From an uncultured Ruminococcus sp. (lineage in GTDB: Bacteria > Bacillota > Clostridia > Oscillospirales > CAG-272), in contig CAZBQN010000001.1 of NCBI GenBank assembly GCA_964494135.1, forward strand, positions 78,412 through 142,411: a stretch of 64,000 nucleotides of DNA, in the 5' to 3' direction. The notes beneath the pieces were generated by a model. It was not told the DNA's origin and did no database searches. It saw only the letters and a list, made by a program, of their open reading frames with translations. A program made the translations under genes and the position numbers. This document shows, piece by piece, positions 7,502 to 23,055 of this stretch (position 1 is the stretch's first letter; each line of letters starts with the position of its first letter).

Positions 7502-8149
7502 TCACAGGTCGGAGAAGAAGATGATCTTCAGCCTTTCGACACTCTCCGCGCAAACAGACAGAGAGTACCGTCTGCCCGACAGCTCCAGAATTTCGGTGTG
7601 CAAACCGTCTGCCTGCAGCTCTCTGCCCGGGACAAAGGCGACGTCATCGCCGCGGGCTTTATACGAAGCTTCCTTTTTCGTCCATTTTTGTATCAAAAAG
7701 TCGACACGCTCCCCGTCCGCCAGCCTTTCATACTCTCTATACTCCGCCTGAGTCAGGGCGCGCCGCGGGAAGCTGTCCGAGCGTGGCTTTCGTATCAGCT
7801 CGATGTCAACACCCACCTCGGAGCTTGAAACAGCCGCGGCACACGCCCCTTTTGTATGCGACAGGGAGAGGTTGAATCTGTCCGACACCCACCTGCCGCA
7901 GCTCATTCGGGAATAATCCGCCCTGTCAGCCGGTATGCCGAGGGCTATTTCAACTCCTCGCTCCAAAAGCCGCCAGGCGTAGCCGCTCTCCCTTGCCCTG
8001 TCGCGGTTTTTCAATGCGGAAAGGTATGAGATGCGCGAAGGGCAGATAACCTCGGGTAAATCATCCCCGTCTGGAATCTCGGATACAAAGACGAAAAGAA
8101 AGCTTTTTTCCCCGTTTTCAATATCCGTCTGAATTTCCTTGACCGTCAA
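7502..8149 (-). CDS. 4'-phosphopantetheinyl transferase (Sfp type)
   Basis: 215 aa with the PPTase motifs GVDIE and (Q)KWTKKEASYKA. No carrier-protein, NRPS or PKS gene is nearby. Confidence 0.8.
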   Translation of the reverse strand: MTVKEIQTDIENGEKSFLFVFVSEIPDGDDLPEVICPSRISYLSALKNRDRARESGYAWRLLERGVEIALGIPADRADYSRMSCGRWVSDRFNLSLSHTKGACAAAVSSSEVGVDIELIRKPRSDSFPRRALTQAEYREYERLADGERVDFLIQKWTKKEASYKARGDDVAFVPGRELQADGLHTEILELSGRRYSLSVCAESVERLKIIFFSDL

Positions 8150-8373
8150 GCCATCACCCCCTTTTTACAGCTTTATTTTATTGTAGCACATTAAGGGTGA
8201 AATTACAAGAGCGAACGCTGTCAAGGGCTTCTCATTTATTATATAATTTAAAGGAGATATTCTCCCACCATTGCCCGTTTGTATTTAATTTTAGGTTATT
8301 ATCCCCCCACTTTATTTGGTAAATCTTTGTATTATAGGTTTTTAATCCCCACTTTTCTTGTTTATATTCAAAT

Positions 8374-9150
8374 TTACTGCATATATTTTTTCAGCTTTTC
8401 GATTGCGCCCTTTTCCAGCCTTGACACCTGTGCCTGGCTGATGCCGATTTCATCGGCGATCTCCATCTGGGTCTTGCCCTTATAAAAACGCAGGCGGACG
8501 ATATTCATCTCCCGCTCATTCAGGTGGGTCATGGCGTCGCGCAGGGACATATTCTCTATCCAGACGGATTCGGAGTCTGATTCATCCGACAGCTTGTCTA
8601 TGACGAACATCTTATCCTCGCCGTCGCCGTACACGCTGTCAAACAGGGATATCGGCTCAACGATAGCCTCCATAGCCTCGCCTACGGCGCGCTCGGTAAC
8701 ACCGAGCCTTTTTGCGATTTCGCCGAGCGTTGCCTCTCTCTGCTCGCCTCCCGAGATTTCCTCCTTGATTTGCAGGGCGCGGTATGCCAAATCCCTGACC
8801 CCTCTCGATACTCTTACCGCATTGTTATCACGCTGATAACGGCGCAGCTCTCCGATAATCATCGGCACCGCATAGGTGGAAAACTTAACGTCCATATCTA
8901 GATTGAAGTTATCAATCGCCTTTATCAGTCCAATACACCCAACCTGAAACAGGTCGTCGCCCGAATCGTGCTTCGGATTAAACCGCCCTGCCACACTCAG
9001 AACAAGTCTGAGATTGCCCATTATCAGCTCCTCTCTCGCCTCACGGTCCCCTCCCTGTGCTCTTTTCAGAAGCTCGCGCTTCTTTTCCTCTGACATAGTC
9101 TTTAGTGTCGAAGTATCAATGCCGCAAATTTCAACCTTGTTAGTTCGCAT
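8374..9150 (-). CDS. sigG: Sporulation sigma factor SigG
   Basis: From the internal start, MRTNKVEICGIDTS...GNLRLVLSV...DDLFQVGCIGLIKAIDNF...KFSTYAVPMIIGELRRY...GISQAQVSRLEK is near-collinear with Bacillus SigG as I recall it. The longer ORF start at 9180 is unsupported. Confidence 0.88.
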   Translation of the reverse strand: MRTNKVEICGIDTSTLKTMSEEKKRELLKRAQGGDREAREELIMGNLRLVLSVAGRFNPKHDSGDDLFQVGCIGLIKAIDNFNLDMDVKFSTYAVPMIIGELRRYQRDNNAVRVSRGVRDLAYRALQIKEEISGGEQREATLGEIAKRLGVTERAVGEAMEAIVEPISLFDSVYGDGEDKMFVIDKLSDESDSESVWIENMSLRDAMTHLNEREMNIVRLRFYKGKTQMEIADEIGISQAQVSRLEKGAIEKLKKYMQ

Positions 9151-9390
9151 TTTCACTCCAATCAGAAATTTTCGTGACAAATTGCAGGAAAAATGCCCAA
9201 AAACACGACACGCCCCCTGCCCTGACCGACAAATCTATTATTGACCGGCAGAGGCGAAAATACTCTGACAGAGGCGAATTTTGTTTTTAAAATCTAGGTT
9301 GACTTTTTTATAGAATGCAGTATGCCGTATGCATAAGCTTCCGCTGATGAAAAGCAGAATGTTTTTTAAGTGTTTCGAAAGAAATTCTAT

Positions 9391-9888
9391 CTACTTATAT
9401 AAATTTATAATTTCTTTTTTCTTTTTCGTCGCGTATTCATAAGCAATTTTTGTGCCGCTGTTACATCTTGACGGAAACGCGCGTTTTTTAAACTGCCGCT
9501 TTATGGGCGGAATATAATCTTCATTGTAATAAAAGGCACAATACGTAGAATTGTCTATCATCTCACAGTTACGCTCTACGTAAGAATATTTACCTGCATT
9601 TTCTATTTTGGTAGGAAAATACGTATCTTCGTACGATTTAAGCAAATATTCTTGATAAGTTTTATTGATATATTGAAAAGCAGACCTGACATACACTCTT
9701 TTTATGGCAGGATATATTTTTTTCAGTTCTGTAACAACCTCCAACGACAATCTGTCAAATTCACTATTACTGCCAAACAGAAAGGTTGTAACGCCCATAT
9801 TTATAAGTGTGATGACCGTTTCTTTCAGCGAGGAAACAAGCACCTCGTTTTTTTCAATAGTTCTATGACCTATAAAGCAAGCGTTCAT
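9391..9888 (-). CDS. SLOG-fold protein, DUF1273/YpsA-like (tentative)
   Basis: 165 aa with N-terminal CFIGHR...(G)SNSEFD...YP.IK.VYV, a pattern reminiscent of DUF1273. The gene sits in a visibly AT-rich stretch. Confidence 0.45.
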   Translation of the reverse strand: MNACFIGHRTIEKNEVLVSSLKETVITLINMGVTTFLFGSNSEFDRLSLEVVTELKKIYPAIKRVYVRSAFQYINKTYQEYLLKSYEDTYFPTKIENAGKYSYVERNCEMIDNSTYCAFYYNEDYIPPIKRQFKKRAFPSRCNSGTKIAYEYATKKKKEIINLYK

Positions 9889-10038
9889 ATTCTTTACCCT
9901 TTTTCGTGGAATTCCACAAAAATTATATCTAAAACATTAAACAAAGTCAATATCGTGGAGTTCCACGAGATAATATTTTTAATTATTTCCATAATTATTT
10001 CATGAAATACCTATAAGGAATACCCCGAAGGTGCGTAT

Positions 10039-10272
10039 ATGAATATAAACGATGCAATAATTAAAAGGATTGAGGAAATCTGCAAGGAAAAGAATATAAA
10101 CGTATGCGAGGCAGCATTAAACGGCGGAAAATCGCCATCTGCAATTTATGACTTGATAAAGGGCAGAACGAAATGCTCCAAGGTGTCAACGATTAAAGCC
10201 TTTTGTCAAGGAGCAGGTATAACCTTATCCGAGTTTTTTGACAAAGAATACTTTAATGATTTTGAAGAATAG
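10039..10272 (+). CDS. Small XRE-family HTH protein
   Basis: 77 aa with an HTH_3-like core (SPSAIYDLIKGRTKCSKVSTIKAFCQGAGITLSEFF). AT-rich codon usage. Confidence 0.65.
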   Translation: MNINDAIIKRIEEICKEKNINVCEAALNGGKSPSAIYDLIKGRTKCSKVSTIKAFCQGAGITLSEFFDKEYFNDFEE

Positions 10273-10284
10273 GCATTAAATAAA

Positions 10285-10327
10285 GGGCTGAATCAAAAGC
10301 TTTTTCAGGAAGCAATTGACTCAGCCC
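10285..10327. terminator. Bidirectional terminator (end of the hydrogenase operon / XRE gene)
   Basis: 12-bp stem GGGCTGAATCAA / TTGACTCAGCCC (1 mismatch), flanked by A/T runs. Confidence 0.55.
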
Positions 10328-10379
10328 CGTTATTTTTATTCCTTAAATTATAAACCTCGTCGGATTCGGCTTTCAAGGC

Positions 10380-11807
10380 TTACTTCAGCACCGAAACCGC
10401 GTCGGAAATGGTCTTTTCGTATGCTTCTCTGCCGTACTTATCGACCTCGGCTTTGTTCTTCTCGCCGTGGGTCAGACAGCCGGCTCCTCCGATACAGCCG
10501 CCGATGCACGCCATGCCCTCGATGAAGTTGGCGTCAAGGACGTTCTTGCTCGCCTTGAGCAATGCCATTCTGCACGCCTCGATACCGTCGCAGACCGCGG
10601 GCTTTATCTCGAAGTCGATATTCTGCTCCTTCATAGCTTGAGCAGCCGCGTCGGTAAGACCGCCGGAGCGGGCGAAAATTCTGCCGAAGTAGGATGCGTT
10701 GTCAAGCACGTCCTCTTCAAGGGTGGTAATCTCAATATCCTTGCTGTCGTACAGAGCCTGAAGCTCCTCGAAGGTCAAAACGGCGTCAACGTAGGGCTTA
10801 ACCGTATCAAGCTGAACCTCTGCCTTTTTTGCGGTACACGGACCGATAAAGACTACCTTAGAGTCGGGGTCAATCTCCTTGACGTACTTCGCCAGAGTTG
10901 CCATGGGCGAGAGGTTGTGAGAAATCTTATCCTGCATATCCGGGAACGCGGTCCTGATATAACGGACGAAGGCGGGACAGCAGGAGCTGGTAAGGAAGCC
11001 CTTTTCCGCAAGCTCCTTTGCCTCGGCGAGCGCAACCATATCCGCGCCCAGAGCCGCCTCGATAACCGTATAGAAGCCCAGCTGTTTCAGACCGGTGATA
11101 ACCTGCCCCAGCTTCGCATAATTGAACTGGCTGGCAATAGAGGGAGCAACGACGGCGTAAACCTTGTAGTTCTCTCCGCCCCCGCTCTTTTTGAGCATAT
11201 CAATTACGCTTAGTATGAAGGATTTATCGGAAATTGCGCCGAAGGGGCACTGGTAAACGCAGGCACCGCACTGAATGCACTTGGAGTTGTCGATAGTTGC
11301 CGCCTTGTCCTCGTTCATAGAGATAGCCTTTACCTTGCAGGCGTTCTGGCAGGGACGCTTACGGCTGACGATGGCGGTATAGGGACAAACCTTGGCACAA
11401 GCTCCGCACTCAACGCACTTTGATTTATCTATATGAGCCACGTGGTTAGAGTCGAAGGAGAGAGCGCCTCTCTTGCACACGTCCTCGCAACGGTGGGCAA
11501 GACATCCGCGGCAGGCGTTGGTAACCTCATAGCCGCCGACGGGACATTCGTCACAGGCAATCTCGATAACCTCGATTATATTGGGATTATTCTCGTCTCC
11601 GCCCATGGCTATTTTTACTCGCTCGCCGAGAATAGCGCGCTCCTTGTATACACAGCAGCGCATGGTAGGCTGTTTGCCGGGGACTATCATCTTCGGCACG
11701 TCCATAATATTTTCAAGCAGGGTATCGTTCCAGGCAAGGCGTGCTACCTCCCTGAGGACCTTATACTTCAAATGCTGTACCTTAGTGTCAAACTTACGCA
11801 ATTTCAT
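10380..11807 (-). CDS. [FeFe] hydrogenase, group-B-like catalytic enzyme
   Basis: 475 aa with multiple 4Fe-4S ferredoxin motifs (CVECGACAKVCP, CIQCGACVYQCP). H-cluster motifs are present: TSSCCPAF, IGPCTAKK, MACIGGCIGG. Confidence 0.85.
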   Translation of the reverse strand: MKLRKFDTKVQHLKYKVLREVARLAWNDTLLENIMDVPKMIVPGKQPTMRCCVYKERAILGERVKIAMGGDENNPNIIEVIEIACDECPVGGYEVTNACRGCLAHRCEDVCKRGALSFDSNHVAHIDKSKCVECGACAKVCPYTAIVSRKRPCQNACKVKAISMNEDKAATIDNSKCIQCGACVYQCPFGAISDKSFILSVIDMLKKSGGGENYKVYAVVAPSIASQFNYAKLGQVITGLKQLGFYTVIEAALGADMVALAEAKELAEKGFLTSSCCPAFVRYIRTAFPDMQDKISHNLSPMATLAKYVKEIDPDSKVVFIGPCTAKKAEVQLDTVKPYVDAVLTFEELQALYDSKDIEITTLEEDVLDNASYFGRIFARSGGLTDAAAQAMKEQNIDFEIKPAVCDGIEACRMALLKASKNVLDANFIEGMACIGGCIGGAGCLTHGEKNKAEVDKYGREAYEKTISDAVSVLK

Positions 11808-11821
11808 ATCTTTACAGCTCC

Positions 11822-12994
11822 TTAAAAATAACTGACCTTAATTCTCTTGCCCATCTTCTTAAGACAAGCGGAAAGCTCCTCGACCAAATTCATTTTTATA
11901 CTGAAATTTATGGGCAGGTCGGGATTCTGGTGAGCAGGGTTAATTGCTCTGCCCACGTAAAAGTTTATATCCGTCGCTTCCTCAAACAGCAGTCGGCTGA
12001 TAAGAGAAGCACCGTCCTTCTTGAAATTCCAATGCTCGTAAAGCTGGTTATCTCCGAGATAATCCTTGGCGTACTCAAGCACTCGGTTTACCGTGATAAC
12101 CCCCTCCGTTACAAGGTCCACGCCTTCAATCTCGGCAATGGGAGGAATATCCGAGCGTTCGAAATTCAGCGAAGCGCGCAAAGGCTTCCCGAGATATTTC
12201 GCGGCAATGGACGAAGTAGTGCCGCCGCAGATAATATGCTTGCCCTCCTTTGAGAAGAACAGCGACATCATACGGTTGCAGTCGTCCCTGTTGGACGGAG
12301 GACCGAAAAGCAGGTTCATCGGCTCGCGCTTGCGAATTTTGACGACGCAGGCGGTGGTGTCGTCGCCCGGCTTCTCACCGTAGAGCTTGTTGCACTCATC
12401 CACCAGCATGGTCGACAGGTTTTTCGCGGTATAGCCGCCTGCCGCCAGAGCCTCCATAAAGCCGATAATATCCTCGCGTTTCCAACCGAAGTTGTACTTT
12501 CCTCCGAGGCCCGCATGGGGACAGCCGTCGCTCATGGCGATAAAGACATCGCCCTCCTTGAGCTTCAAGGAGGTCTTGTAAATCTTCTTGCCCCCTATGT
12601 TCATCTCGGTCTTCGGGTAATCGTAATTCGCGTCGTCTCTCAGTACGATTACGTGAGGGTTGTCGTACTGGATTATATTCGCCGTTTCGTTATTGAGCAG
12701 ATGTATAATCGTAAAGGTGGAATACGCCACGCCTCTGACCGAGCATACCGGCAGGGTGGCGGCAATGGTGGAAACGCACTCCTCGATAGGCAGTCCCGCC
12801 GCCATCATCGTAGATATAATCTTTGAGGTAAGCGTGGAGAGTATGCTCGCCTTAACGCCGCTTCCGAGGCCGTCCGCAAGTACGATAACAGTTGAGTTCT
12901 CGTTCTCCTCGACGATGTCCACGTGGTCGCCGCAAAGCTCCTCGCCTACGTGATTTATGCTCTTATATCCTATCTCGGCACACAGATCATTCAT
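11822..12994 (-). CDS. PP2C/SpoIIE-family serine phosphatase
   Basis: 390 aa with GDHVDIVE...VLADGLGSGVKAS...MSDG...DDTT, characteristic of SpoIIE-type PP2C. Its start overlaps the upstream hydS-like stop by 8 nt. Confidence 0.85.
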   Translation of the reverse strand: MNDLCAEIGYKSINHVGEELCGDHVDIVEENENSTVIVLADGLGSGVKASILSTLTSKIISTMMAAGLPIEECVSTIAATLPVCSVRGVAYSTFTIIHLLNNETANIIQYDNPHVIVLRDDANYDYPKTEMNIGGKKIYKTSLKLKEGDVFIAMSDGCPHAGLGGKYNFGWKREDIIGFMEALAAGGYTAKNLSTMLVDECNKLYGEKPGDDTTACVVKIRKREPMNLLFGPPSNRDDCNRMMSLFFSKEGKHIICGGTTSSIAAKYLGKPLRASLNFERSDIPPIAEIEGVDLVTEGVITVNRVLEYAKDYLGDNQLYEHWNFKKDGASLISRLLFEEATDINFYVGRAINPAHQNPDLPINFSIKMNLVEELSACLKKMGKRIKVSYF

Positions 12995-14663
12995 CGCTGA
13001 TAGACTCCTTCAGCTTGGTCAGAGCTATCTTGGTTTCAGCCGCGGTCTCGCCGAGCAGGGACGCAATCTCCTGAACGATACGCATCTGCTTCTCAACGAC
13101 CTTGTCTGCAACCTCTACGGTCTGTCTGCTGATATTCTCCTTCTTCTCCCGCTCGGTCTCCTCGTCGGTGACGTCGCGCAGAATACCGATAAGCATACGT
13201 GAATCATGGTCGTAAACTACCGTCTGCTCAACGTAGCGCTTGTATTCGGCAAGATATACCTTCTGATCTCTGACGCTTCTGCCCGTACGCTTTACCGTCA
13301 TAAATACCTCGGGGTCAAGAATACGGACGACCGGCTCGCCCAGCACGTCGGAGGCGGAACGGATGTTCATAATCTTTCTTGCGGAGTTGTTTATCTGCTG
13401 TACCTCAAGATTATCGTTGAGAACGATAAGCCCGTTGGGCGTATTCTCCACTATGGTGTCGGAGAAGCTCTCCGCCTTGTCCTTAAGGTGAGGCAGGCAC
13501 ATGGAAATCTCCGCCTTGCCCTGACAGACGGCTATCGCCTTCTCACGGCAGGAATTGTATCCGCAGGAGCCGCAGTTAAGCTCATCCGAGGGCTTGAATT
13601 TACCCATCTGGCGGAGCACGGCTGCAATCTCGCTGTCCGAGGGTGTCGCCAGCTTATGCTCTATGTAGCTGAACTGCTTTCTTACATCCTCCGGCTTCGG
13701 CTGCTCTACGTCGAAGTCCTCTTTGCCCGCATAACCCGACACGGTCATATACCCCTTTACGGGAGAGAGGCGGTTTTTCTCCATAATAGGACCGCCGATA
13801 CAGCTGCCCGTGCAGGCGGACATCTCGATAAAGCACTTATGAATTTTGCCCGACTCTATGTCCTTGAGAGCGGCGATGCAATTCTCAACGCCGTCAAGCG
13901 CAAGGTAGGTATATCCCGGGGCGTTCTGAGCCATGGTCTTCAATATGCCGCCGGTGGTCGGGAACAGGCGGGCGCGGCTCTTTTCCAGTGAGCCCATCTC
14001 GTCCCTCAGGGTAATCCCCTCTTTTTCCAGCCAACACGTCAGCTCGTCAAAGGTGAGGACGGCGTCGGTAATACCCTCGTAGTACTCAGCTTCATCCTTC
14101 TTTGCAACGCAGGGGCCGATGAATACCGTCTTGGCGTTCGGGATGCGCTCCTTGATATTTTTGCAGTGAGCCTGCATCGGCGACAAAACGTCAGCCAGAT
14201 ATTCCAGCTCTCTCGGAAAATACTTCTGTATAAGAAGATTTATTGAGTGACAGCAGGAGGAGATAACTATATCTCTGCCCACATCCTCCCTGAGCATGCG
14301 CTCGTACTCGGTCTTGACGATAGACGCGCCGATCGCCGTTTCCTCAACGTCGAAGAAGCCCAGCTTTTTTAGTCCCTCGCGCATAGACTCGATGCCGACG
14401 CCGTAGTTGGCAACGAAGGACGGGGCAAGGCTGACGACTACCGGGTCGCCGCTCTGCAAAAATACGCGTACCTTCTCGGTTTCGTCTACAATCTCCTTTG
14501 CGTTCTGAGGACATACGACGAAGCAGTTACCGCAGAGTATGCACTCATTACCTATGATGTGTGCCTGGTTACCCGAGAAGCGAATGGCTTTGACCGGGCA
14601 ATGGCGGATGCATTTGTAACAGTTCTTACAGTTTGATTTCTTTAAAGTAAGACAGTCTGGCAC
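12987..14663 (-). CDS. Sensory [FeFe] hydrogenase-like protein with a C-terminal PAS domain (HydS/HfsB type)
   Basis: 558 aa. It has an N-terminal 2x[4Fe-4S] domain and an H-cluster domain (SSCCHS, IGPCVAKK, MSACTGSCIGGP). An extra Cys4 motif (CGSCGYNSCREKA...C) and a PAS-like region follow. Confidence 0.8.
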   Translation of the reverse strand: MPDCLTLKKSNCKNCYKCIRHCPVKAIRFSGNQAHIIGNECILCGNCFVVCPQNAKEIVDETEKVRVFLQSGDPVVVSLAPSFVANYGVGIESMREGLKKLGFFDVEETAIGASIVKTEYERMLREDVGRDIVISSCCHSINLLIQKYFPRELEYLADVLSPMQAHCKNIKERIPNAKTVFIGPCVAKKDEAEYYEGITDAVLTFDELTCWLEKEGITLRDEMGSLEKSRARLFPTTGGILKTMAQNAPGYTYLALDGVENCIAALKDIESGKIHKCFIEMSACTGSCIGGPIMEKNRLSPVKGYMTVSGYAGKEDFDVEQPKPEDVRKQFSYIEHKLATPSDSEIAAVLRQMGKFKPSDELNCGSCGYNSCREKAIAVCQGKAEISMCLPHLKDKAESFSDTIVENTPNGLIVLNDNLEVQQINNSARKIMNIRSASDVLGEPVVRILDPEVFMTVKRTGRSVRDQKVYLAEYKRYVEQTVVYDHDSRMLIGILRDVTDEETEREKKENISRQTVEVADKVVEKQMRIVQEIASLLGETAAETKIALTKLKESISDE

Positions 14664-14667
14664 GGGC

Positions 14668-14931
14668 TCACTCCCTTTCTTTCAGAATAGGCTCAAGAAT
14701 ATTTTTGTTGAAAAATTCGTAAAAGTTGTCACGGGTAATACCCACGTGAACGTCATCGTTCACCTGTATCGTGACGCCGATGCGGTTGCACCTGCCGGTA
14801 CAGAAGCTGCCGGTAAGCACAACGTCGTCCTCCAGATGATGCTCTGCAATCGCCTTCTCCATCAGCTCCACCAGCTCCCCTGAACCCTTTATGTAACAGG
14901 AGCTGCCTATGCATATCTGAACTATGAGCAT
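14668..14931 (-). CDS. Thioredoxin-like [2Fe-2S] ferredoxin (NuoE/HndA C-terminal type)
   Basis: The internal start gives MLIVQICIGSSCYIKGS...GSFCTGRCN with four Cys. It is a paralog of the upstream gene. Confidence 0.7.
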   Translation of the reverse strand: MLIVQICIGSSCYIKGSGELVELMEKAIAEHHLEDDVVLTGSFCTGRCNRIGVTIQVNDDVHVGITRDNFYEFFNKNILEPILKERE

Positions 14932-14935
14932 TATA

Positions 14936-15175
14936 TTATACCTTAGCGAGAATTTCGCTGTTGAAGAAATCGGCAACGCTCTCCGGTGTCACCGAATGGA
15001 AGGCGTCGTCAACCGTGACGCAAACGCCCTTCTGGCACTGACCCATGCAGAAGGTACCGCCCAGCTCAACCTTGTCACTAAGCTTGTTCTCGGAAATGAG
15101 ATACTGGAGCTGTTCAACTACCTGACGGGAGCCCTTGATGTGGCAGGAGCTGCCTATACATACCGTAACTTTCAT
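14936..15175 (-). CDS. Thioredoxin-like [2Fe-2S] ferredoxin
   Basis: 79 aa: MKVTVCIGSSCHIKGS...GTFCMGQCQ, the same Cys pattern as its neighbour. Confidence 0.7.
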   Translation of the reverse strand: MKVTVCIGSSCHIKGSRQVVEQLQYLISENKLSDKVELGGTFCMGQCQKGVCVTVDDAFHSVTPESVADFFNSEILAKV

Positions 15176-15196
15176 TTTGATTTCCTCCGGTTTTAG

Positions 15197-15946
15197 TTAT
15201 TCATAGTCAACTACGCTGACCCAGCTCATAAGGAACTCGCGCTCCTTCTCATTGCCCTTTACCGACTGGGAAGCGGCAACGATGGGCATCCACTTCTGTA
15301 CGTACTGCTTTGCGGTATTGCTCTTCTTGCAGAATATATCAAGATAGGTCTTTGCGCCTTCGATGTCGCCATTAAGCCAGAACAGAAGGTAGGTACGCGC
15401 AACGTCTGCGGAGGCGTTACCCTGAGTTGCGTGCGCCCAGTCGATGATGTAGGGCGTGCCGTCCTCGGTGATGATGATATTTGAGGGGTTGAAGTCGCCG
15501 TGGCAAACCTTGGTATGCTTGGGCATGCCCTCAAGACGGGTGTGCAAGTCGTATCTGGTGGTTGCGTCAAACTGAGTCTGGCTGATCTTTCTGTTCATCT
15601 TGTCCTTGAGCTTGTTCAGCATGGGGCAGGTCTTTGCGTGAACGGACATCTGAATGTCAACAAGCTGTTCGATGTACTTATCCTTATTGTCGGGGTCCTC
15701 TGCCATAATCTGAGAGAGAGTCTTGCCCTTTATGTACTCGGAAACTATTGCCCACTTGCCGTCTACCATGGTTACTTCAAGAACCTTGGGAATATTAAGA
15801 CCCGTTTCCTCAATTCTCGCCTGGTTGAGTGCCTCGTTAAGCACGTCAGCCTTGGAATACTCGGAATTGAACACCTTAACGCATCTGTCGCCGTCGCGGT
15901 ATACGGTCTTGTTGTTTCTCACTGCTATAACTTTATCCAGTTTCAT
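15197..15946 (-). CDS. APH/ChoK-fold protein kinase-like phosphotransferase
   Basis: 249 aa with a catalytic loop HGDFNPSNIII and the Mg-binding motif IDW, as in aminoglycoside/Ser-Thr kinase-fold enzymes. Confidence 0.7.
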   Translation of the reverse strand: MKLDKVIAVRNNKTVYRDGDRCVKVFNSEYSKADVLNEALNQARIEETGLNIPKVLEVTMVDGKWAIVSEYIKGKTLSQIMAEDPDNKDKYIEQLVDIQMSVHAKTCPMLNKLKDKMNRKISQTQFDATTRYDLHTRLEGMPKHTKVCHGDFNPSNIIITEDGTPYIIDWAHATQGNASADVARTYLLFWLNGDIEGAKTYLDIFCKKSNTAKQYVQKWMPIVAASQSVKGNEKEREFLMSWVSVVDYE

Positions 15947-15970
15947 ATCCTTAACTCCTTTCGGTTATTC

Positions 15971-18670
15971 TTATGCTTTTCTGCCCTTACGGTAGGGAGT
16001 CTTTACGGCATCGGGCTGTACGCTGTCAAAGCCGGTCACGGGCATCTCTGCCTCGGTGAAGTGCTTATCGCCGTAGTAAGCGTTGAGATACATTTGCTTG
16101 ATTTCGCTCATGAGAGGATATCTGGGGTTAGCGCCGGTGCACTGGTCGTCGAACGCCTGCTCGGTCATCTCGTCAAGTCTGTCAAGGAAGACCTTTTCGT
16201 CAATGTTGTACTCCTTGATGGACTTCTTGATGCCTACTCGCGCCTTAAGGTCGTTGACCGCCTTGATAAGCCCCTCCAGCTTGTCGCTGTCACTCTCGCC
16301 CTTGATGCCGAGGTAATCGGCAACCTCCGCGTAGCGGGCAAGGGTGTGAGGATGGTCGTACTGAGAGAATGTGCCCATCTTTGCGGGAGCCTCAGCGGCG
16401 TTAAAGCGGAGAACCTCCTCGATCATCAGCGCGTTTGCAACGCCGTGAGGAAGGTGATGGAAGGCGCCCAGCTTGTGAGCCATGGAGTGGCATACGCCGA
16501 GGAACGCGTTTGCGAACGCCATACCTGCCATGGTAGCGGCGTTAGCCATCTTCTCACGGGCAACCACGTCCGTCTGACCGTTGTCGTAGGCTCTCGGCAG
16601 ATACTCGAAGATAGTCTTCAGAGCGCGGAGGGCAAGACCGTCGGTGTAGTCGGTAGCCATAACCGATGCGTAAGCTTCAAGCGCGTGAGTTACGGCGTCG
16701 ATACCGGATGCGGCTGTAAGTCCCTTGGGAGCCGACATGTGGAAGTCGGTATCGATGATTGCCATATTGGGAAGCAGCTCGTAGTCCGCAAGAGGATACT
16801 TGACACCGGTCTTCTCGTCGGTGATAACCGCGAAGGGAGTAACCTCGGAGCCGGTACCTGCGGAGGTGGGAATTGCGATGAAGTAAGCCTTCTCTCCCAT
16901 CTTGGGGAAGGTGTATATTCTCTTACGGATATCGACAAATCTCATTGCCATATCCATAAAGTCTGCTTCGGGATGCTCGTAGAGTACCCACATAATCTTT
17001 CCCGCGTCCATAGCAGAGCCGCCGCCCAGGGCGATAATCGTGTCGGGTTCGAAGCTTCTCATCTGCTTAGCGCCCTCGGTCGCGTTTGCAAGAGTGGGGT
17101 CGGGCTGAACGTTGTAGAACGTGGTGTGCTGGATACCCATCTCGTCAAGCTTGTCGGTAATGGGCTTCGTATAACCGTTCTGGTAAAGGAAGGTATCGGT
17201 TACGATAAACGCCTTCTTTGCGCCTCTTACGGACTTAAGCTCGTCAAGGGCAACGGGCAGACAGCCCTTCTTTATGTAAACCTTCTCGGGTGTTCTGAAC
17301 CAAAGCATATTTTCTCTCCTCTCTGCCACGGTCTTGATATTCAACAGGTGCTTTACACCTACGTTCTCGGATACGCTGTTTCCGCCCCAGGAGCCGCAGC
17401 CCAGAGTAAGAGAGGGAGCGAGCTTGAAGTTGTACAGGTCGCCGATACCGCCGTGCGCGGAGGGAGTATTTACGAGAATACGGCAGGTCTTCATACGGGC
17501 GGCAAACTTAGCCAGCTTCTCACCCTCGGTAACCTCGTTGAGATATACGGAGGAGGTGTGGCCGTAGCCGCCGTCTGCTACGAGGACGTCAGCCTTGTCA
17601 AGAGCGTCGTCAAAGCTCTTTGCCTTGTACATCGCAAGAACGGGCGAGAGCTTCTCGTGAGCGAACTCCTCGGACAGGTCTACGCTCTCAACCTCGCCGA
17701 TGAGTATCTTCGTGCCTGCGGGAACGGTAACGCCTGCCAGCTCGGCAATTCTTGCCGCTCTCTGACCTACTATCCTTGCGTTGAGCGCGCCGTTTATGAT
17801 AATGGTCTTGCGCACCTTCTCGGTCTCCTCGGGGGTGAGGAAGTAACAGCCCCGTGCGGCAAACTCGTCCTTAACCGCGTCGTAGATATTTTCCATAACG
17901 ATAACCGACTGCTCGGATGCGCAGATCATACCGTTGTCGAAGGTCTTGGAGTGAATGATGGAGCTGACCGCGAGAAGAATGTCAGCGGTGTCATCTATAA
18001 TTGCGGGAGTATTTCCTGCGCCGACGCCCAGAGCCGGCTTACCGCTGGAGTATGCCGCCTTAACCATGCCGGGACCGCCGGTGGCAAGGATGATGTCAGC
18101 CTCCTTCATTACGGTGTTGGTAAGCTCGAGAGAGGGTACGTCTATCCAGTCGATAATTCCCTCGGGCGCGCCTGCCGCAACCGCCGCTTCAAGCACCAGC
18201 TTTGCCGCCGCGATGGTAGAGCCCTTTGCTCTGGGGTGAGGGCTGATGATTATGGCGTTACGGGTCTTCAGAGCCAGAAGGCACTTGAAGATTGCGGTAG
18301 AGGTGGGGTTGGTGGTGGGGATTACCGCGGCGACTACGCCGATAGGCTCGGCGATCTTCTTGATGCCGTAAGCCTTATCCTCCTCAATAACACCGCAGGT
18401 CTTGGTGTTCTTATACGCGTTGTAGATGTACTCCGCGGCGTAGTGGTTCTTGATGACCTTGTCCTCTACGATGCCCATGCCGGTTTCTTCAACGGCGAGC
18501 TTTGCAAGAGAAATTCTGGCTTTGTCCGCGGCAGACGCGGCGGCAAGGAATATCCTGTCTACCTGCTCCTGGGTGTAGGTCGCGTACTTCTTCTGCGCGG
18601 CTCTGGTGCGAGCCAAAGCCTCCTCAAGCTTCTCAACAGAATCAACGATTTCATAATTCCGGGGTTTCAT
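15971..18670 (-). CDS. adhE: Bifunctional acetaldehyde-CoA / alcohol dehydrogenase
   Basis: 899 aa, made of an N-terminal ALDH domain plus a C-terminal Fe-ADH domain (GGGSAMDAGK, histidine-rich metal site). Typical AdhE length. Confidence 0.97.
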   Translation of the reverse strand: MKPRNYEIVDSVEKLEEALARTRAAQKKYATYTQEQVDRIFLAAASAADKARISLAKLAVEETGMGIVEDKVIKNHYAAEYIYNAYKNTKTCGVIEEDKAYGIKKIAEPIGVVAAVIPTTNPTSTAIFKCLLALKTRNAIIISPHPRAKGSTIAAAKLVLEAAVAAGAPEGIIDWIDVPSLELTNTVMKEADIILATGGPGMVKAAYSSGKPALGVGAGNTPAIIDDTADILLAVSSIIHSKTFDNGMICASEQSVIVMENIYDAVKDEFAARGCYFLTPEETEKVRKTIIINGALNARIVGQRAARIAELAGVTVPAGTKILIGEVESVDLSEEFAHEKLSPVLAMYKAKSFDDALDKADVLVADGGYGHTSSVYLNEVTEGEKLAKFAARMKTCRILVNTPSAHGGIGDLYNFKLAPSLTLGCGSWGGNSVSENVGVKHLLNIKTVAERRENMLWFRTPEKVYIKKGCLPVALDELKSVRGAKKAFIVTDTFLYQNGYTKPITDKLDEMGIQHTTFYNVQPDPTLANATEGAKQMRSFEPDTIIALGGGSAMDAGKIMWVLYEHPEADFMDMAMRFVDIRKRIYTFPKMGEKAYFIAIPTSAGTGSEVTPFAVITDEKTGVKYPLADYELLPNMAIIDTDFHMSAPKGLTAASGIDAVTHALEAYASVMATDYTDGLALRALKTIFEYLPRAYDNGQTDVVAREKMANAATMAGMAFANAFLGVCHSMAHKLGAFHHLPHGVANALMIEEVLRFNAAEAPAKMGTFSQYDHPHTLARYAEVADYLGIKGESDSDKLEGLIKAVNDLKARVGIKKSIKEYNIDEKVFLDRLDEMTEQAFDDQCTGANPRYPLMSEIKQMYLNAYYGDKHFTEAEMPVTGFDSVQPDAVKTPYRKGRKA

Positions 18671-18728
18671 TGTATGTCCTCCTGATATATATTTATCGAT
18701 TTAGAGTTTTAACCCTCATTTCTGAAGT

Positions 18729-18746
18729 TCGTTAATATTTTAACAT
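18729..18746. promoter_or_regulatory. Rex-type operator candidate
   Basis: TCGTTAATATTTTAACAT against the clostridial Rex consensus TTGTTAA-N4-TTAACAA matches 12 of 14 specified positions. It overlaps the predicted adhE -10 element. Confidence 0.45.
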
Positions 18747-18765
18747 ACTTGTTTTTTCTTGTGAA
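18737..18765 (-). promoter_or_regulatory. Putative adhE promoter
   Basis: On the minus strand: TTCACA (18765-18760), 17 nt, TGtTAAAAT (extended -10, 18742-18737). Confidence 0.4.
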
Positions 18766-18944
18766 TAACTAAAATGTTATATGGGTGTTATCCTTTTCGA
18801 TATACCGCGCGCAGGTCGCGCGCGCTTTAATAAAGCGATGCCGATAGCTCCCCTGTCAGTCGGGCATCTATACCGATTGTCGGGCGCGGCTCAGACAGAC
18901 GGTTACAAGTGCTTTGCATTGAATTTTACATCGGTCGGGCGCGG

Positions 18945-19865
18945 TTACAGGTGCTTGCGCTTTGCCTCGCAGAGGCAGGTGATAAACTGACGGTCAAGCT
19001 CTGACAGCCTATATCCGTCCTTGTATATCAGCACGTCGCGATAGACTCCCAGGTTGTCGGTACAGGCTCTTTGCACCAGGCCGTACCCCGACAAAATCCG
19101 CTCCGGCACGGGACATACCCACGTGAACGCCTCGGGGTTCTCGGCGAGCAGGTCAAGTGCGCTCGCTCTTTCAAATACCAATATGCGCCTGTCCGTACCG
19201 CCCCCAAGCTCGGTCTTCCCTGCCGAAGACACCGGGACGGGCGGCACCTGGTTATCTGCTTGTACGATCTCGGTAAAGGGCGACAGCTCCGACAGCATTA
19301 TCTGCTCCTTTTCGGCTAAGGGATGCTCTTTATTCATAACGATGACGTGTGAGAATTCGGCGACTACTTCGTAGGACAGCCCCTTTTCCTCAAGCATTGA
19401 TTTATAATATTTATCGTAATTTTCGGCATAGCGGATAATTCCCAGCTTGCAATCTCCGCCGAGAATGCTCTGTACCGTCGCGGGCGTGCCCGTCTCCTGA
19501 TACGAAAGCTCGGCAGCCCCGTCGCCTATCTGTCGGGAAAACCTCGCAAACGCCTCGGATACATAGGCGGCTCGCGGGACGGATACGGAAAACCTGCGCT
19601 TTACCCGGACCCCGTTTTTATACCGCTTCTCAACTCGGTCAATTTCGGCAAGAATATCCTTCGCATAGCCGATGAACTCCTCGCCCTCGGGAGTCAGCTC
19701 CATGCCCTTCGCGGAACGGCTGAAAATCGCGATCCCCAGGTCAGCCTCCAGCTCCTTTATGGAACGGCTGATGTTCGGCTGAGCTATCAGGAGCGACTCC
19801 GCCGCCTTATTGAGCGAGCCGAGCCTGGCGACCTCGACCGCATATTTCATATGCAGAATATTCAT
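18945..19865 (-). CDS. LysR-family transcriptional regulator
   Basis: 306 aa with an N-terminal HTH_1 domain (MKYAVEVARLGSLNKAAESLLIAQPNISRSIKELE) and a LysR substrate-binding domain. Confidence 0.85.
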   Translation of the reverse strand: MNILHMKYAVEVARLGSLNKAAESLLIAQPNISRSIKELEADLGIAIFSRSAKGMELTPEGEEFIGYAKDILAEIDRVEKRYKNGVRVKRRFSVSVPRAAYVSEAFARFSRQIGDGAAELSYQETGTPATVQSILGGDCKLGIIRYAENYDKYYKSMLEEKGLSYEVVAEFSHVIVMNKEHPLAEKEQIMLSELSPFTEIVQADNQVPPVPVSSAGKTELGGGTDRRILVFERASALDLLAENPEAFTWVCPVPERILSGYGLVQRACTDNLGVYRDVLIYKDGYRLSELDRQFITCLCEAKRKHL

Positions 19866-20097
19866 AATTCTCTCCCATATCTGCCTGTCAAGCTCTCCGG
19901 ATATGAGATCCGACGGCTCACTGACAGCTTTGCATTCACAAGACAGTATCCGGCTTTCCTTGCGGTTTTATATAATATTTTAACATATATATATATGAAA
20001 ATCAAGTAAATAAAAATAACATGATGACGAAAAAAACACTTTTTTTGATAAAAAAGCAATTCCGAAATTTTTTATCTGAATTTTTTCTTAAAAACTA

Positions 20098-20126
20098 TTG
20101 ACAAACCTCGGTTTTTATTGTATAAT
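20098..20126 (+). promoter_or_regulatory. Consensus sigma-A promoter of tRNA-Glu
   Basis: TTGACA (20098-20103), 17 nt, TATAAT (20121-20126). The tRNA begins 19 nt after the -10. Confidence 0.7.
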
Positions 20127-20144
20127 AGCGGAGCATCTGATGAT

Positions 20145-20219
20145 GGCTCGTTGGTCAAGCGGCTAAGACACGGCCCTCTCAAGGCTGAAACGGGAGTTCG
20201 ATTCTCCCACGAGTCACCA
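20145..20219 (+). tRNA. tRNA-Glu (anticodon CTC), CCA encoded
   Basis: Hand-folded cloverleaf. Acceptor: GGCTCGT/ACGAGTC. D arm: GTC-AAGCGGCTAA-GAC. Anticodon arm: CGGCC-CT[CTC]AA-GGCTG. T arm: GGGAG-TTCGATT-CTCCC. It ends with A-CCA. Confidence 0.9.
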
Positions 20220-21093
20220 AGCAAAAAAGGACACCCGTAGCGGTGTCCTTTTTTGCTTGACGCTTCGCGGTCGATCAAACTCCCCTCGCGCACTTAGCTC
20301 AGCAGTAAAAGCGCACTTTGTGTCTCATAGCTTCACGGTCGCTCCGACCTTATCTGCGCGAATGGAGTTCGCAGTCCTGCCTGCACGGTCTCGCACGGCG
20401 AGACCCCCACGCCTTAATCTCGCTATCGGCTAAATGCTTTCCGCATAGCAAAGCCTGCCGCCTCAGCCTCCGGCAGGCAGATTCTCCCACGTCAGTCCGA
20501 GGGACTGCCACTTTTCTCTCTTTTCCCTTCTTCTATCGTCACAGACACCCGTAGCGGTGTCCTTTTTTGCTTGACGCTTCGCGGTCGATCGAACTCCCCT
20601 CGCGCACTTAGCTCAGCAATAAAAGCGCACTTTGTGTCTCACAGCTTCACGACCTCTCCGGCTTTTCCTGCGCGAATGGAGTTCGGAGCCCTGCCTGCAC
20701 GGTCTCGCCGTGCGAGACCACACAGCGACGGCTTCGTGTCGGCTCTATGCTACCCACAGAGAAACGGTTTTCACTTTTGCCTCCGGCAGGCAGATTCTCC
20801 CACGTCAGTCCGAGGGACTGCCACTTTTCTATCTTTTCCCTTCTTCTATCGTCACAGACACCCGTAGCGGTGTCCTTTTTGCTTGACGCTTCGCGGTCGA
20901 TCGAACTCCCATCGCGCACTTAGCTCGGCAATAAAAGCGCGCTTTGTGTCTCATAGCTTCACGACCGCTCCGTCCTTTCCTGCGCGAATGGAGTTCGCAG
21001 TCCTGCCTGCGCGGTCTCGCCGTGCGAGACCCCTCAGTGATGGCTTCGTGTCGGCTCTATGCTACCCACAGAGAAACGGTTTTCACTTTTGCC
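20200..21093 (+). repeat. Tandem array, about 313/314-bp unit, 3 copies (the first starts inside the tRNA T-loop)
   Basis: The anchor ACACCCGTAGCGGTGTCC occurs at 20231, 20545 and 20858. GATTCTCCCACG (tRNA positions 20200-20211) recurs at 20480 and 20793. Homology ends near 21093. Confidence 0.9.
20214..20258 (+). repeat. Left direct repeat (tRNA-Glu tail + terminator hairpin)
   Basis: TCACCAAGCAAAAAAGGACAC-CCGTAGCG-GTGTCCTTTTTTGCTT. This matches 23281-23325 except in the loop and for single-nt A/T-run differences. Confidence 0.8.
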
Positions 21094-21167
21094 CTTGGTT
21101 AACAGTTCCTACTGCCAAGTCTGTAGCGGACTTTCTCCGCCAAGTTGTAACGTGTGCCGAGCACACC

Positions 21168-21212
21168 AAGACACGAGGCGATGCCCGATTGAGCATCGCC
21201 TCGTGTCTTTAA
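21168..21212 (+). terminator. Strong hairpin terminator closing the repeat array
   Basis: 17-bp perfect stem AAGACACGAGGCGATGC (21168-21184) / GCATCGCCTCGTGTCTT (21193-21209), followed by T then an A/T-rich stretch. Confidence 0.55.
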
Positions 21213-21369
21213 ATTAAACACTCGTTTTTGTACTCGTGTCGCAATATCCTTTTCCTAATAGCAAAAGCGGATATTACCATGGTTTAGACCTTGCAATTTG
21301 AAATCGCATTTTTGAGCATTTTTCCGCGCCTTTTCTGTTCAAGCGGTGTAAATTTTGAGGAGCGAAAAA

Positions 21370-21705
21370 TTATAAATGCTTGTCAATAAGCTTTATCATT
21401 TCAATCGCCAGTTTTTTCTTGTTTTCGCTGAGTTTGCTGATTTCATTTGTTATTTCACAGCTCAGGTAATTTGGGTTTGACGGTGAGCTTTCTGTTATCA
21501 AGGATGCGATATCGCATTTGAGTGCTCCTGAAATTGCGCCCAATAAATCAAGACTTATTTTAGTGATGCCTCGCTCAACCTGACTGATGTAACCAATTGA
21601 AACATTAAGCTTTTCAGCAAGAGCTTCTTGCGTAATTTCAAGCTTTTTACGTTCCGTTTTGATTCTTGCTCCGATTAACTTATAATCAATACTCATTTCT
21701 CTCAC
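21370..21705 (-). CDS. XRE-family HTH transcriptional regulator
   Basis: 111 aa with an HTH_3 core (ITQEALAEKLNVSIGYISQVERGITKISLDLL). It is divergent from the 408-aa gene and is AT-rich. Confidence 0.8.
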   Translation of the reverse strand: MREMSIDYKLIGARIKTERKKLEITQEALAEKLNVSIGYISQVERGITKISLDLLGAISGALKCDIASLITESSPSNPNYLSCEITNEISKLSENKKKLAIEMIKLIDKHL

Positions 21706-21777
21706 CTCATTAAATAAGAATATAACATTACAAGCTAAAAATGAAGATACTGATAAGTTAAATTAAAGCTATAACTA

Positions 21778-21806
21778 TTGACAAAACTGTAGTTTGATGT
21801 TATAAT
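21778..21806 (+). promoter_or_regulatory. Consensus sigma-A promoter of the 408-aa gene
   Basis: TTGACA, 17 nt, TATAAT. It shares the 13-mer AACTATTGACAAA (21773-21785) with the tRNA-Glu promoter (20093-20105). Confidence 0.6.
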
Positions 21807-21828
21807 ACGTAAAAAAGGAGCGAGTGAA

Positions 21829-23055
21829 ATGGAAAATCTAAATGAAAAAACAGAATTTACCATGGCGGTTGAAAATCAAAGAAATAGGAACGGAGAAAAA
21901 TCTGAAATTTACAAGAGCGCTATTGAAGCGTGGGAAAATGCTGATTTTGAAGTCGCATACGATCTTTTCGAGCAGGTGATTAAACAATACCCTGAAAATG
22001 ATTTGGCTGGAATATTGTTTGCTATTTGCGGTAATATTCAGGATTATTTGGATGATGAGATTTTAGCGGATTCTTTTTGTGAGAGTTATCCAAAACTGTA
22101 CAAGGACGAATATTGCTTATCTTCCTATATGTGTTCTTATTTGGAAGAAACGGTAAATGATTTGCTTGAAAACTTAACGAAGGCATATAAGGGGAATTTA
22201 CCTCATCGTAAAATCGTTGATTTCGTTAGATCAACAGAAGCTGCAGTGAGGATTTTTGAAACAATCAAAAACGTTGCGGAACAGCGAAATGAAACTGACA
22301 GCTCTGAATATAAGGACTGCTTAAAATATCTCTGTATCTTATATCAGATAATGCAGAATAAATGCAAGTGCTCTGAGTGCGGCGGATACTGTAAATCTAG
22401 CGAATGGAAGATTAATGAGAATTGCGAAAAGAAACTGCAAATTGTAAAAGAGAAACTCGAAAATCTAAATGAAGATTTTTCTGTTAAGAAATACAAGGAT
22501 GACAAAGCTAAAAGTGAACAAAAGGCGGAAGAAGAGTATCAAAACAACACCGAATATGAAAATAGGGAAAGTATCCCCGAACAGAAAATTAAGGGCGCTA
22601 AAAAAATACTAAAGAAATCGTTTTATGGTTTGCTTGTAGGTGCGATTATTGCCTTCATATCTTTTATTAAGCCTGAATATTTTTCTCGTTTTCAAATTTT
22701 TTCGGTTGTTCTGTTGGTTACAAGTAGTATTATCGTTTTAGTAAGTTTTGCTACGATAATAGGACAGATATCGCGAAAACAGGTTTACTGTGGCAGATGC
22801 AAGAAGAAATTCAGGAAAGATGAAATTAAAGATATAAATATTTTGGGCGTTAAGGATGCAACGGATTCTCTTGTGACTATTATGTACGTCGCGGAGCTGA
22901 AATGTTCAGATTGCGGTAATTCTGTGTTAATAAAAAGAAAATTCAGTTTTTCAAAAAGCCTAAAGTATAATTTTGTAAGCAAAGAAGAAGCGATTGCTGA
23001 TATGAACGAGGCGGCAATTCGAGATTTTGAATCTTTTATCGACAGAACGTATTAA
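21829..23055 (+). CDS. Hypothetical membrane protein: helical/TPR-like N-domain, Cys cluster, coiled coil, 2 TM helices, C-terminal zinc ribbon
   Basis: 408-aa ORF with an AAGGAG RBS. It has CKCSECGGYC, then a Lys/Glu-rich segment. Hydrophobic stretches are FYGLLVGAIIAFISFI and IFSVVLLVTSSIIVLVSFATIIG. The C-terminus carries CGRC...CSDCG. No family was recognised. Confidence 0.7.
   Translation: MENLNEKTEFTMAVENQRNRNGEKSEIYKSAIEAWENADFEVAYDLFEQVIKQYPENDLAGILFAICGNIQDYLDDEILADSFCESYPKLYKDEYCLSSYMCSYLEETVNDLLENLTKAYKGNLPHRKIVDFVRSTEAAVRIFETIKNVAEQRNETDSSEYKDCLKYLCILYQIMQNKCKCSECGGYCKSSEWKINENCEKKLQIVKEKLENLNEDFSVKKYKDDKAKSEQKAEEEYQNNTEYENRESIPEQKIKGAKKILKKSFYGLLVGAIIAFISFIKPEYFSRFQIFSVVLLVTSSIIVLVSFATIIGQISRKQVYCGRCKKKFRKDEIKDINILGVKDATDSLVTIMYVAELKCSDCGNSVLIKRKFSFSKSLKYNFVSKEEAIADMNEAAIRDFESFIDRTY

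Follow-up and report, generated by a model that had tools for sequence, protein, structure and literature searches.

A Ruminococcus albus-type adhE-HydS-hydrogenase cluster in an uncultured Ruminococcus, with a Rex-type operator at its promoter

The choice of fermenting bacteria between hydrogen (H2) and ethanol governs the supply of H2 to the methanogens of the rumen and gut, and it also sets the ethanol yield of engineered thermophiles. In this work, we analyze a gene cluster in a stretch of 64,000 nucleotides (nt) from an uncultured Ruminococcus sp. (GenBank assembly GCA_964494135.1, contig CAZBQN010000001.1, positions 78,412 to 142,411 of the forward strand), which we call the window and in whose numbering all positions below are given. 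The cluster contains adhE, a putative sensory [FeFe] hydrogenase gene (hydS), a phosphatase gene (pp2c) and a second [FeFe] hydrogenase gene. The closest described system is located on the megaplasmid pRUMAL01 of Ruminococcus albus 7, where the annotated order on one strand is LysR, Rex, adhE, phosphotransferase, two (2Fe-2S) ferredoxins, HydS, SpoIIE phosphatase and a hydrogenase of 478 amino acids (aa). Greening et al. (2019; PMC6776011) described an eight-gene cluster of R. albus that includes a ferredoxin-only hydrogenase, a bifunctional alcohol/aldehyde dehydrogenase and a sensory hydrogenase; expression of the cluster fell 111-fold when R. albus was grown with an H2 consumer, and the sensor was co-transcribed with the hydrogenase and the alcohol dehydrogenase. 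A model for R. albus HydS was proposed by Zheng et al. (2014), as cited by Eminoglu et al. (2017; PMC5707799).

Another described system is hfsABCD of Thermoanaerobacterium saccharolyticum and T. thermosaccharolyticum. Like the window cluster, it encodes in this order a small Fe-S protein, a HydS protein with a PAS domain (HfsB), a Ser phosphatase (HfsC) and a ferredoxin-linked [FeFe] hydrogenase (HfsD), and it is also tied to adhE expression and ethanol yield and has a predicted upstream Rex box. In particular, deletion of hfsA or hfsB in Thermoanaerobacterium raised the adhE transcript 2-3 fold and led to more ethanol (PMC5707799), and in T. saccharolyticum adhE and hfsABCD are each preceded by predicted Rex boxes of the form TTGTTAATAAATTAAC.. 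(PMC5886521). However, adhE lies elsewhere in those genomes and has Rex boxes of its own, descriptions of the operon mention no kinase, and in the window thioredoxin-like [2Fe-2S] ferredoxins stand at the position of HfsA. An earlier note on this DNA had named both precedents, namely the sensory hydrogenase cluster of R. albus and the Thermoanaerobacterium hfs locus, in which lesions alter ethanol formation, and the literature supports them. A more distant system, HoxBC with HoxJ/HoxA of Ralstonia eutropha, is a functional analogue only: there too a hydrogenase-derived H2 sensor and a phospho-relay control hydrogenase genes, but the protein families are unrelated, the relay consists of a histidine kinase and a response regulator in place of a PP2C and an APH-fold kinase, and the output, HoxA, is known.

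The ORF (open reading frame) listing and translations place seven consecutive genes at 10380-18670, all on the minus strand and in one direction. In the direction of reading, they are as follows:

15971-18670, minus strand: adhE, bifunctional acetaldehyde-CoA/alcohol dehydrogenase (899 aa; NF010378, 1390 bits, cut-off 951)
15197-15946, minus strand: phosphotransferase of the APH/choline-kinase fold, called the APH-fold kinase below (249 aa; PF01636, 62.8 bits, cut-off 23.2)
14936-15175, minus strand: fdx1, thioredoxin-like [2Fe-2S] ferredoxin 1 (79 aa; PF01257; Cys ligands C6/C11/C43/C47)
14668-14931, minus strand: fdx2, thioredoxin-like [2Fe-2S] ferredoxin 2 (87 aa; PF01257; start at the ATG at 14931)
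12987-14663, minus strand: hydS, HydS/HfsB-type putative sensory [FeFe] hydrogenase (558 aa; two [4Fe-4S] sites, H-domain, Cys4 motif, PAS domain and C-terminal helix)
11822-12994, minus strand: pp2c, SpoIIE/RsbU-type PP2C phosphatase (390 aa; PF07228; 8-nt overlap with hydS)
10380-11807, minus strand: hydB, group B ("colonic-type") monomeric [FeFe] hydrogenase, ortholog of R. albus HydA2 (475 aa; TIGR04105)

The gaps at the six junctions are 24, 21, 4, 4, -8 and 14 nt, and a Shine-Dalgarno sequence precedes all seven start codons. The start of ferredoxin 2 at 14931 agrees with the gene call on an independent contig. The ORFs, the Pfam and NCBIfam identities and the junction analysis thus bear out the layout given in the earlier note, seven co-directional genes with gaps of -8 to 24 nt.

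This locus is an ortholog of the pRUMAL01 cluster, from a member of the uncultured gut or rumen Clostridia whose nearest relatives are labelled Ruminococcus/Oscillospiraceae. With the HydS protein of the window as the query, pRUMAL01 is matched at 70.7% identity, and the two clusters agree in gene content, order and strand, in the lysR gene upstream and in the hydS/pp2c overlap. All eight shared genes are one-to-one best matches, with pairwise BLASTP identities of 76% for adhE, 79% for the kinase, 78% and 53% for the first and second ferredoxins, 71% for HydS, 79% for PP2C, 75% for HydA2 and 58% for LysR. The difference is that R. albus has rex between lysR and adhE, whereas the window has no rex there and instead has a clear Rex-type box in the promoter. 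The earlier note had regarded the joining of adhE and the sensor in one unit as what this locus adds; that claim fails because Greening et al. (2019) had already reported the cluster, adhE included, and R. albus 7 has the same order on pRUMAL01. The locus is a further ordinary copy of a published cluster type, its chief difference from R. albus being the lack of an in-cluster rex, and the window does not put the question of how group C sensory hydrogenases signal in a new way, since the same cluster is present in R. albus 7, which is in culture and has been studied by transcriptomics.

We consider it probable that this R. albus-type cluster forms one Rex-operated, LysR-controlled unit for "high-H2" fermentation, combined with a HydS-PP2C(-kinase) phospho-switch. 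The following elements, judged from the DNA sequence, bear on the first part of this reading:

18945-19865, minus strand: lysR, LysR-family regulator (306 aa; PF00126 HTH_1, 66 bits; LysR_substrate, 25.6 bits)
18829-18868, minus strand: likely lysR terminator, a hairpin plus T-run 3' of lysR
18776-18806, minus strand: AT-rich block (GGTATATC...GATAA...TATAAC) immediately 5' of the -35 element, a candidate site for activation by LysR
18737-18765, minus strand: sigma-70-type promoter of adhE (TTCACA, 17 nt, TAAAAT, with a TG extension; 10/12 matches plus TG)
18729-18746, minus strand: Rex-type operator ATGTTAAAATATTAACGA, a palindrome overlapping the -10 element of the adhE promoter
10275-10328, minus strand: intrinsic terminator closing the operon (long hairpin, then TTTATTTAAT), the sole terminator, after the last gene

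The seven genes are most likely transcribed together, from the promoter at 18737-18765 as far as the terminator at 10275-10328. Orthologous promoters keep both the -35 and the -10 element, and the 76-nt stretch that contains the terminator has a minimum free energy of -31.5 kcal/mol. The earlier note's single terminator after the operon is confirmed by this hairpin. None of the gaps between the seven genes has room for a hairpin and a U-tract, and terminator-like and promoter-like matches within the genes are not more frequent than in shuffled sequence; the earlier note, too, saw no internal terminators. At the junction between adhE and the kinase gene, on which the earlier note had let its single unit depend, neither a promoter nor a terminator is seen: the 24-nt gap folds with merely -2.7 kcal/mol and has no hairpin, and a promoter scan of the 3' end of adhE detected no promoter-like site.

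Within the 64-kb window, the Rex-type box at 18729-18746 is the sole match to TGTTAANNNNTTAACA with at most one mismatch, where 0.1 would be expected. It resembles the Rex boxes predicted in T. saccharolyticum, from which report (PMC5886521) the consensus was taken, and ATGTTAAAATATTAACGA differs from the palindromic Rex operator type TTGTTAANNNNTTAACAA at two positions. We also carried out a census of such boxes in 70 loci, allowing up to two mismatches and covering the 250 nt that precede the first cluster gene. A Rex-type box was found in 15 of the 70 loci against 0.39 in shuffles, an enrichment of about 40-fold, and in 8 of the 12 loci in which adhE comes first, with the same placement relative to the -10 element. 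Upstream of adhE in three loci (L023, L039 and L046), the palindrome TCGATAA-N4-TTATCGA lies just after the -10 element in place of the TGTTAA-N4-TTAACA Rex-type box. This palindrome could be bound by Rex as a variant operator, or by a different regulator.

The lysR gene shares the strand of adhE, lies 274 nt upstream of it and appears to be a separate upstream transcription unit. In R. albus, lysR is likewise followed by a hairpin with a T-run. Among NCBIfam families, the best similarities of the LysR protein are to CidR and AlsR, each below the cut-off. The position of the AT-rich block upstream of the -35 element is kept in eight aligned promoters and in R. albus, and it is plausible that LysR binds there. 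The earlier note had stated that the cluster encodes neither a STAS protein nor a DNA-binding output. The first part holds, as no STAS gene is located nearby, but the second does not: the interval described there stopped at 18765, short of lysR (18945-19865), and the promoter carries the Rex-type operator.

To compare the cluster among genomes, we scanned genomes with the HydS alignment described below and obtained 80 species-representative loci with HydS identities of 58-83%, nearly all from metagenome-assembled genomes (MAGs) of gut or rumen Clostridia. The neighboring genes were mapped by tblastn with the window proteins and R. albus Rex. Four of the loci (L020, L039, L052 and L078) carry labels that are implausible for a Clostridia-type cluster (Methanocorpusculum, Anaeroplasmataceae, Atopobiaceae and Bacteroides, respectively), and these are probably mis-binned MAG contigs. 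Gene counts were made on the 53 loci, window and R. albus included, that have at least 4.3 kb upstream of hydS.

In these loci, pp2c always adjoins hydS, and the same 8-nt overlap is found in every locus that holds pp2c. The other genes vary. The adhE gene is present in 25 of the 53 loci, 24 of which have the kinase gene as well; the kinase gene is present in 32, including 8 without adhE. An adjacent lysR is found in 25 loci, among them clusters without adhE and clusters with neither adhE nor the kinase gene, and rex is adjacent, as the first cluster gene, in 18. On the HydS tree, each of adhE, kinase, rex and lysR requires at least 15-17 changes, and therefore these associations do not go back to one inherited event. 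The invariant core is hydS-pp2c, and the ferredoxins, the hydrogenase, the kinase, adhE, rex and lysR are add-on modules; profiling of co-occurrence with hydS, which the earlier note had proposed, thus singles out pp2c as the constant neighbor. In its minimal form the cluster is fdx-hydS-pp2c-hydB, the counterpart of hfsABCD; Monoglobus pectinilyticus also has this form. The seven-gene juxtaposition is not due to chance, because the identical gene order occurs in dozens of species-level genomes.

The HydS protein has an H-domain (PF02906, Fe_hyd_lg_C; 155.9 bits), two Fer4 domains, a Cys4 motif between the H-domain and the PAS domain (PF04060; 36.4 bits) and a PAS domain at residues 402-498 (PF00989; E 2.2e-6, 28.1 bits against a cut-off of 22.6). 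An exhaustive search of representative sequences for relatives showed this architecture, over the full length, in more than 150 clusters at 50% identity, and 35 of these relatives, 33-61% identical, were aligned with the window protein. In this alignment of 36 sequences, the H-cluster ligands C138, C185, C284 and C288, the eight Cys of the two N-terminal [4Fe-4S] sites and the Cys4 ligands C364, C367, C372 and C389 are all invariant. The HydS-like identity with its Cys4 motif, as proposed in the earlier note, therefore survives careful alignment of the H-cluster ligands.

In sensory-type [FeFe] hydrogenases, the residues equivalent to CpI M353, M497 and C299 are altered, C299 being Ala131 in Thermotoga maritima HydS (PMC10055695). 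In the window protein, CpI M353 and M497 are replaced in the sensory manner by G183 (G183-P-C185) and S282 (S282-A-C284). The biochemically characterized T. maritima HydS, of group C, resembles it in having an H-domain with the four cluster Cys, a PAS domain, an accessory cluster and replaced M353/M497 equivalents. By published residues, the two differ at the proton-relay position, where T. maritima HydS has A131 and the window protein has C137. The C137 column varies (C, S, A, Y, T, Q) in the 36-sequence alignment, while the Cys is kept in R. albus HydS and in 51 of the 53 loci. In the HydDB classification, C3 is "phosphatase-linked (putative)" sensory, with its role listed as undetermined, and B is "colonic-type (putative)". 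The HydS protein shows the features of group C3: an H-domain, a PAS domain, the Cys4 motif, replaced M353/M497 and an adjoining PP2C gene with the 8-nt overlap. Retention of C137 is compatible with membership of this group and marks a subclade.

The most conserved stretch of HydS is the C-terminal helix that follows the PAS domain (residues ~524-558, at 12987-13092). It is conserved across the relatives at 33-61% identity and served as the pattern for the locus search. This helix may be a docking surface for the phosphatase.

The PP2C protein matches SpoIIE (5mqh, 3t91 and 5ucg) and RsbX among PDB sequences, and its metal-binding residues D23, D41, D156, D211 and D212 are invariant. In the AlphaFold2 (AF2) model, which has a predicted local distance difference test score (pLDDT) of 70 and a poorly resolved C-terminal half, the best Foldseek match is the phosphatase domain of Bacillus subtilis SpoIIE (5mqh, E 2.9e-13). 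By sequence and by predicted fold, then, the phosphatase belongs to the subfamily of the SpoIIE/RsbU partner-switching modules, and no STAS or GHKL/HATPase_c protein of such a module was found among the seven cluster proteins and ten neighbors. Residues 221-390 (11822-12334) form a second domain that is conserved above the catalytic domain and contains the invariant motifs GPP, GGTT, LVTEG, LFE.ATD, NPAHQ and a terminal Y-F. No Pfam family covers it, and comparison of its profile with PDB sequences gave at most a weak SIS-like hint (3trj, E 0.27). Foldseek with the full-length model returned PP2C domains only; for residues 221-390 alone, the AF2 model has a pLDDT of 56, and Foldseek returned nothing below E 0.14.

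The hydrogenase at the end of the cluster matches TIGR04105 ("B1") at 577 bits against a cut-off of 450, over profile positions 1-461 of 462, and its L1, L2 and L3 motifs are intact (SSCCPA, GPCTAKK and GMACIGGC). The group-B label of the earlier note agrees with this NCBIfam assignment. Note that labels for the R. albus ortholog HydA2 (L081, 10847-12283) conflict: it scores 577.4 bits on TIGR04105, so that NCBIfam places both proteins in B1, whereas Greening et al. (2019; PMC6776011) place HydA2 in group A1.

The APH-fold kinase is probably active and catalytically intact, because its catalytic residues are conserved across 42 orthologs: K24, E38, H149-G-D151 and D169 are invariant, and N156 is kept in at least 70%. 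A test for a Hanks-type Ser/Thr kinase was negative, as PF00069 (Pkinase) gave 22.7 bits, under the cut-off of 31.7. Matches to PDB sequences are marginal, the best being a choline kinase (E 8.6e-4), and there is also similarity to the RIO/Bud32-like and TCAD9 families, which are protein-kinase-like. Membership of this fold family (APH/choline kinase/RIO-like) does not show whether the substrate is a protein.

From these parts, a working mechanism can be drawn. The operon would encode the "high-H2" branch of fermentation, in which AdhE sinks NADH into ethanol and the ferredoxin-only group B [FeFe] hydrogenase sinks reduced ferredoxin into H2. When H2 builds up, the bifurcating hydrogenase would stall and the NADH/NAD+ ratio would rise, whereupon Rex would be released and the promoter opened, with the LysR regulator probably acting at the conserved AT-rich block that precedes the -35 element. 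HydS would bind or turn over H2 at its complete H-cluster, possibly fed with electrons by the two small [2Fe-2S] ferredoxins, and its PAS domain and C-terminal helix would pass its state to the translationally coupled SpoIIE-type PP2C; the APH-fold kinase would provide the opposing phosphorylation. The phospho-target would not be an encoded STAS protein; candidates are AdhE, the C-terminal domain of PP2C itself, HydS or HydB, and LysR. Among the papers since 2019 in the collection searched, we found no solved signalling target of HydS.

Since Rex responds to NADH/NAD+, HydS need not sense H2 for the published H2-dependent co-regulation of adhE and hydrogenase in R. albus to be accounted for; HydS may serve for fine-tuning or for control at the post-translational level. 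The Rex operator thus provides an H2-independent explanation of co-regulation that is to be excluded before H2 sensing is invoked. The description of the locus in the earlier note as a compact test case for the conversion of H2 pressure into an ethanol-versus-H2 decision is weakened accordingly, because Rex and NADH can account for the co-regulation. The comparison does sharpen the question, in that HydS and its coupled PP2C, with a conserved C-terminal domain, are invariant, the kinase tracks adhE, and LysR and Rex are recurrent neighbors.

Several observations weigh against the reading of one Rex-operated, LysR-controlled unit with a phospho-switch. As to Rex, tblastn with R. albus Rex gave no match to a rex gene within the 64-kb window, and the R. 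albus promoter has no good match to the same Rex consensus. As to LysR, its gene is co-directional with the cluster and not divergent. As to the single unit, a promoter-like site with 10/12 matches is present at 14964-14935, inside fdx1, and could serve as a separate promoter for fdx2-hydS-pp2c-hydB; in addition, many related clusters begin at fdx. As to the switch, the fold family of the kinase mostly phosphorylates small molecules, and the kinase gene is absent in 21 of the 53 loci, so that it may not be the partner of PP2C. Finally, the proton-relay Cys of HydS, C137 (the CpI C299 equivalent, codon at 14253-14255), is not replaced, and therefore the HydS clade that carries it may be more catalytically competent than a pure sensor.

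An alternative that we judge unlikely is that HydS, the two ferredoxins, PP2C and the group B hydrogenase are parts of one "Hfs complex", with PP2C and the kinase tuning the enzyme post-translationally and Rex and LysR alone governing transcription. The Thermoanaerobacterium papers treat HfsA-D as subunits, and HfsABC might be a functional hydrogenase without HfsD (PMC13277313). The fdx-hydS-pp2c-hydB core travels as a set, and the C299-equivalent Cys, kept in 51 of 53 loci, sets these proteins apart from T. maritima HydS with A131. Hydrogenase activity rose upon deletion of hfsB (PMC5707799), which is also counted in favor of the complex. On the other hand, HydS bears a PAS domain and the sensory-type substitutions of M353 (Gly) and M497 (Ser), and the HydDB class for such enzymes is C3, "phosphatase-linked, putative sensory". 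Moreover, pp2c is not directly followed by a group B hydrogenase in at least 10 of the loci that extend several kb downstream (L012, L013, L021, L032, L035, L043, L045, L052, L061 and L070), although three of them (L013, L035 and L043) do have one about 1 kb further downstream.

It is quite unlikely, in our view, that the HydS-PP2C-kinase module acts post-translationally on its companion enzymes and not on transcription, a proposal that can take two non-exclusive forms. In the first, the kinase would phosphorylate AdhE, for which its presence in 24 of the 25 adhE loci, across many independent gains and losses, is suggestive, and HydS-sensed H2 would set the ethanol flux through dephosphorylation by PP2C. 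In the second, the C-terminal domain of PP2C, with its strand-GGTTSS-helix loop and invariant RAINPAHQNP motif, would be a built-in phospho-acceptor or docking module that pairs with the C-terminal helix of HydS and replaces the STAS partner. If true, each form would represent an H2-to-phosphorylation switch of a new type.

The kinase might also have nothing to do with PP2C. We hold it improbable that it is a small-molecule kinase with a functional link to AdhE or aldehyde/alcohol metabolism, the PP2C substrate being phosphorylated by a kinase encoded elsewhere. Its APH/choline kinase family, the sub-threshold Pkinase score and the choline kinase as the best PDB sequence match fit this possibility, as does its occurrence in nearly all adhE loci while 21 of the 53 HydS-PP2C loci lack it. 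However, the 8 loci that have the kinase without adhE always have it between the regulators and fdx-hydS, its RIO/Bud32-like and TCAD9 similarities are protein-kinase-like, and Zheng et al., as cited in PMC5707799, saw a Ser/Thr protein kinase.

That adhE and the downstream genes are abutting independent transcription units without regulatory meaning is highly improbable: the promoter-like site inside fdx1 and the repeated gain and loss of adhE, kinase, rex and lysR would suit it, but the hairpin-free 24-nt gap after adhE, the adhE 3' end free of promoter-like sites, the single terminator after the whole gene set, the same order in 25 of 53 loci and the joint shift in expression of the R. albus orthologs, about 100-fold, weigh against it.

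What remains of interest in the R. albus-type unit is the phospho-target, the co-occurrence of kinase and adhE, and the C-terminal domain of PP2C, all of which are better pursued in the cultured R. albus 7.

Downstream of the operon are two paralogs of the sigma-70 family at 8374-9180 and 3569-4354, 36% identical to each other, the nearer of which is 1.2 kb away. A SLOG-family gene (9391-9888) is located between the operon and the nearer sigma-factor gene. Neither the sigma-factor genes nor the SLOG gene are conserved neighbors of HydS clusters elsewhere, and for this reason we rejected the idea that the sigma-70-family gene at 8374-9180 provides the output of a partner-switching module.

Beyond lysR, a tRNA-Glu(CTC) gene lies on the plus strand at 20145-20219, directly behind a perfect TTGACA-17-TATAAT promoter (20098-20126). 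One tRNA was the sole match in an Rfam scan of 8000-23000. Directly downstream of the tRNA gene, 20236-21200 consists of three tandem GC-rich repeats of about 313 nt each, which have no Rfam match and whose ORFs have no Pfam match. Copies of 218 nt match the reference copy at 72% and 94% identity. Repeats 1 and 2 each end with the hairpin GACACCCGTAGCGGTGTC and a T-run, and repeat 3 diverges over its last ~90 nt.

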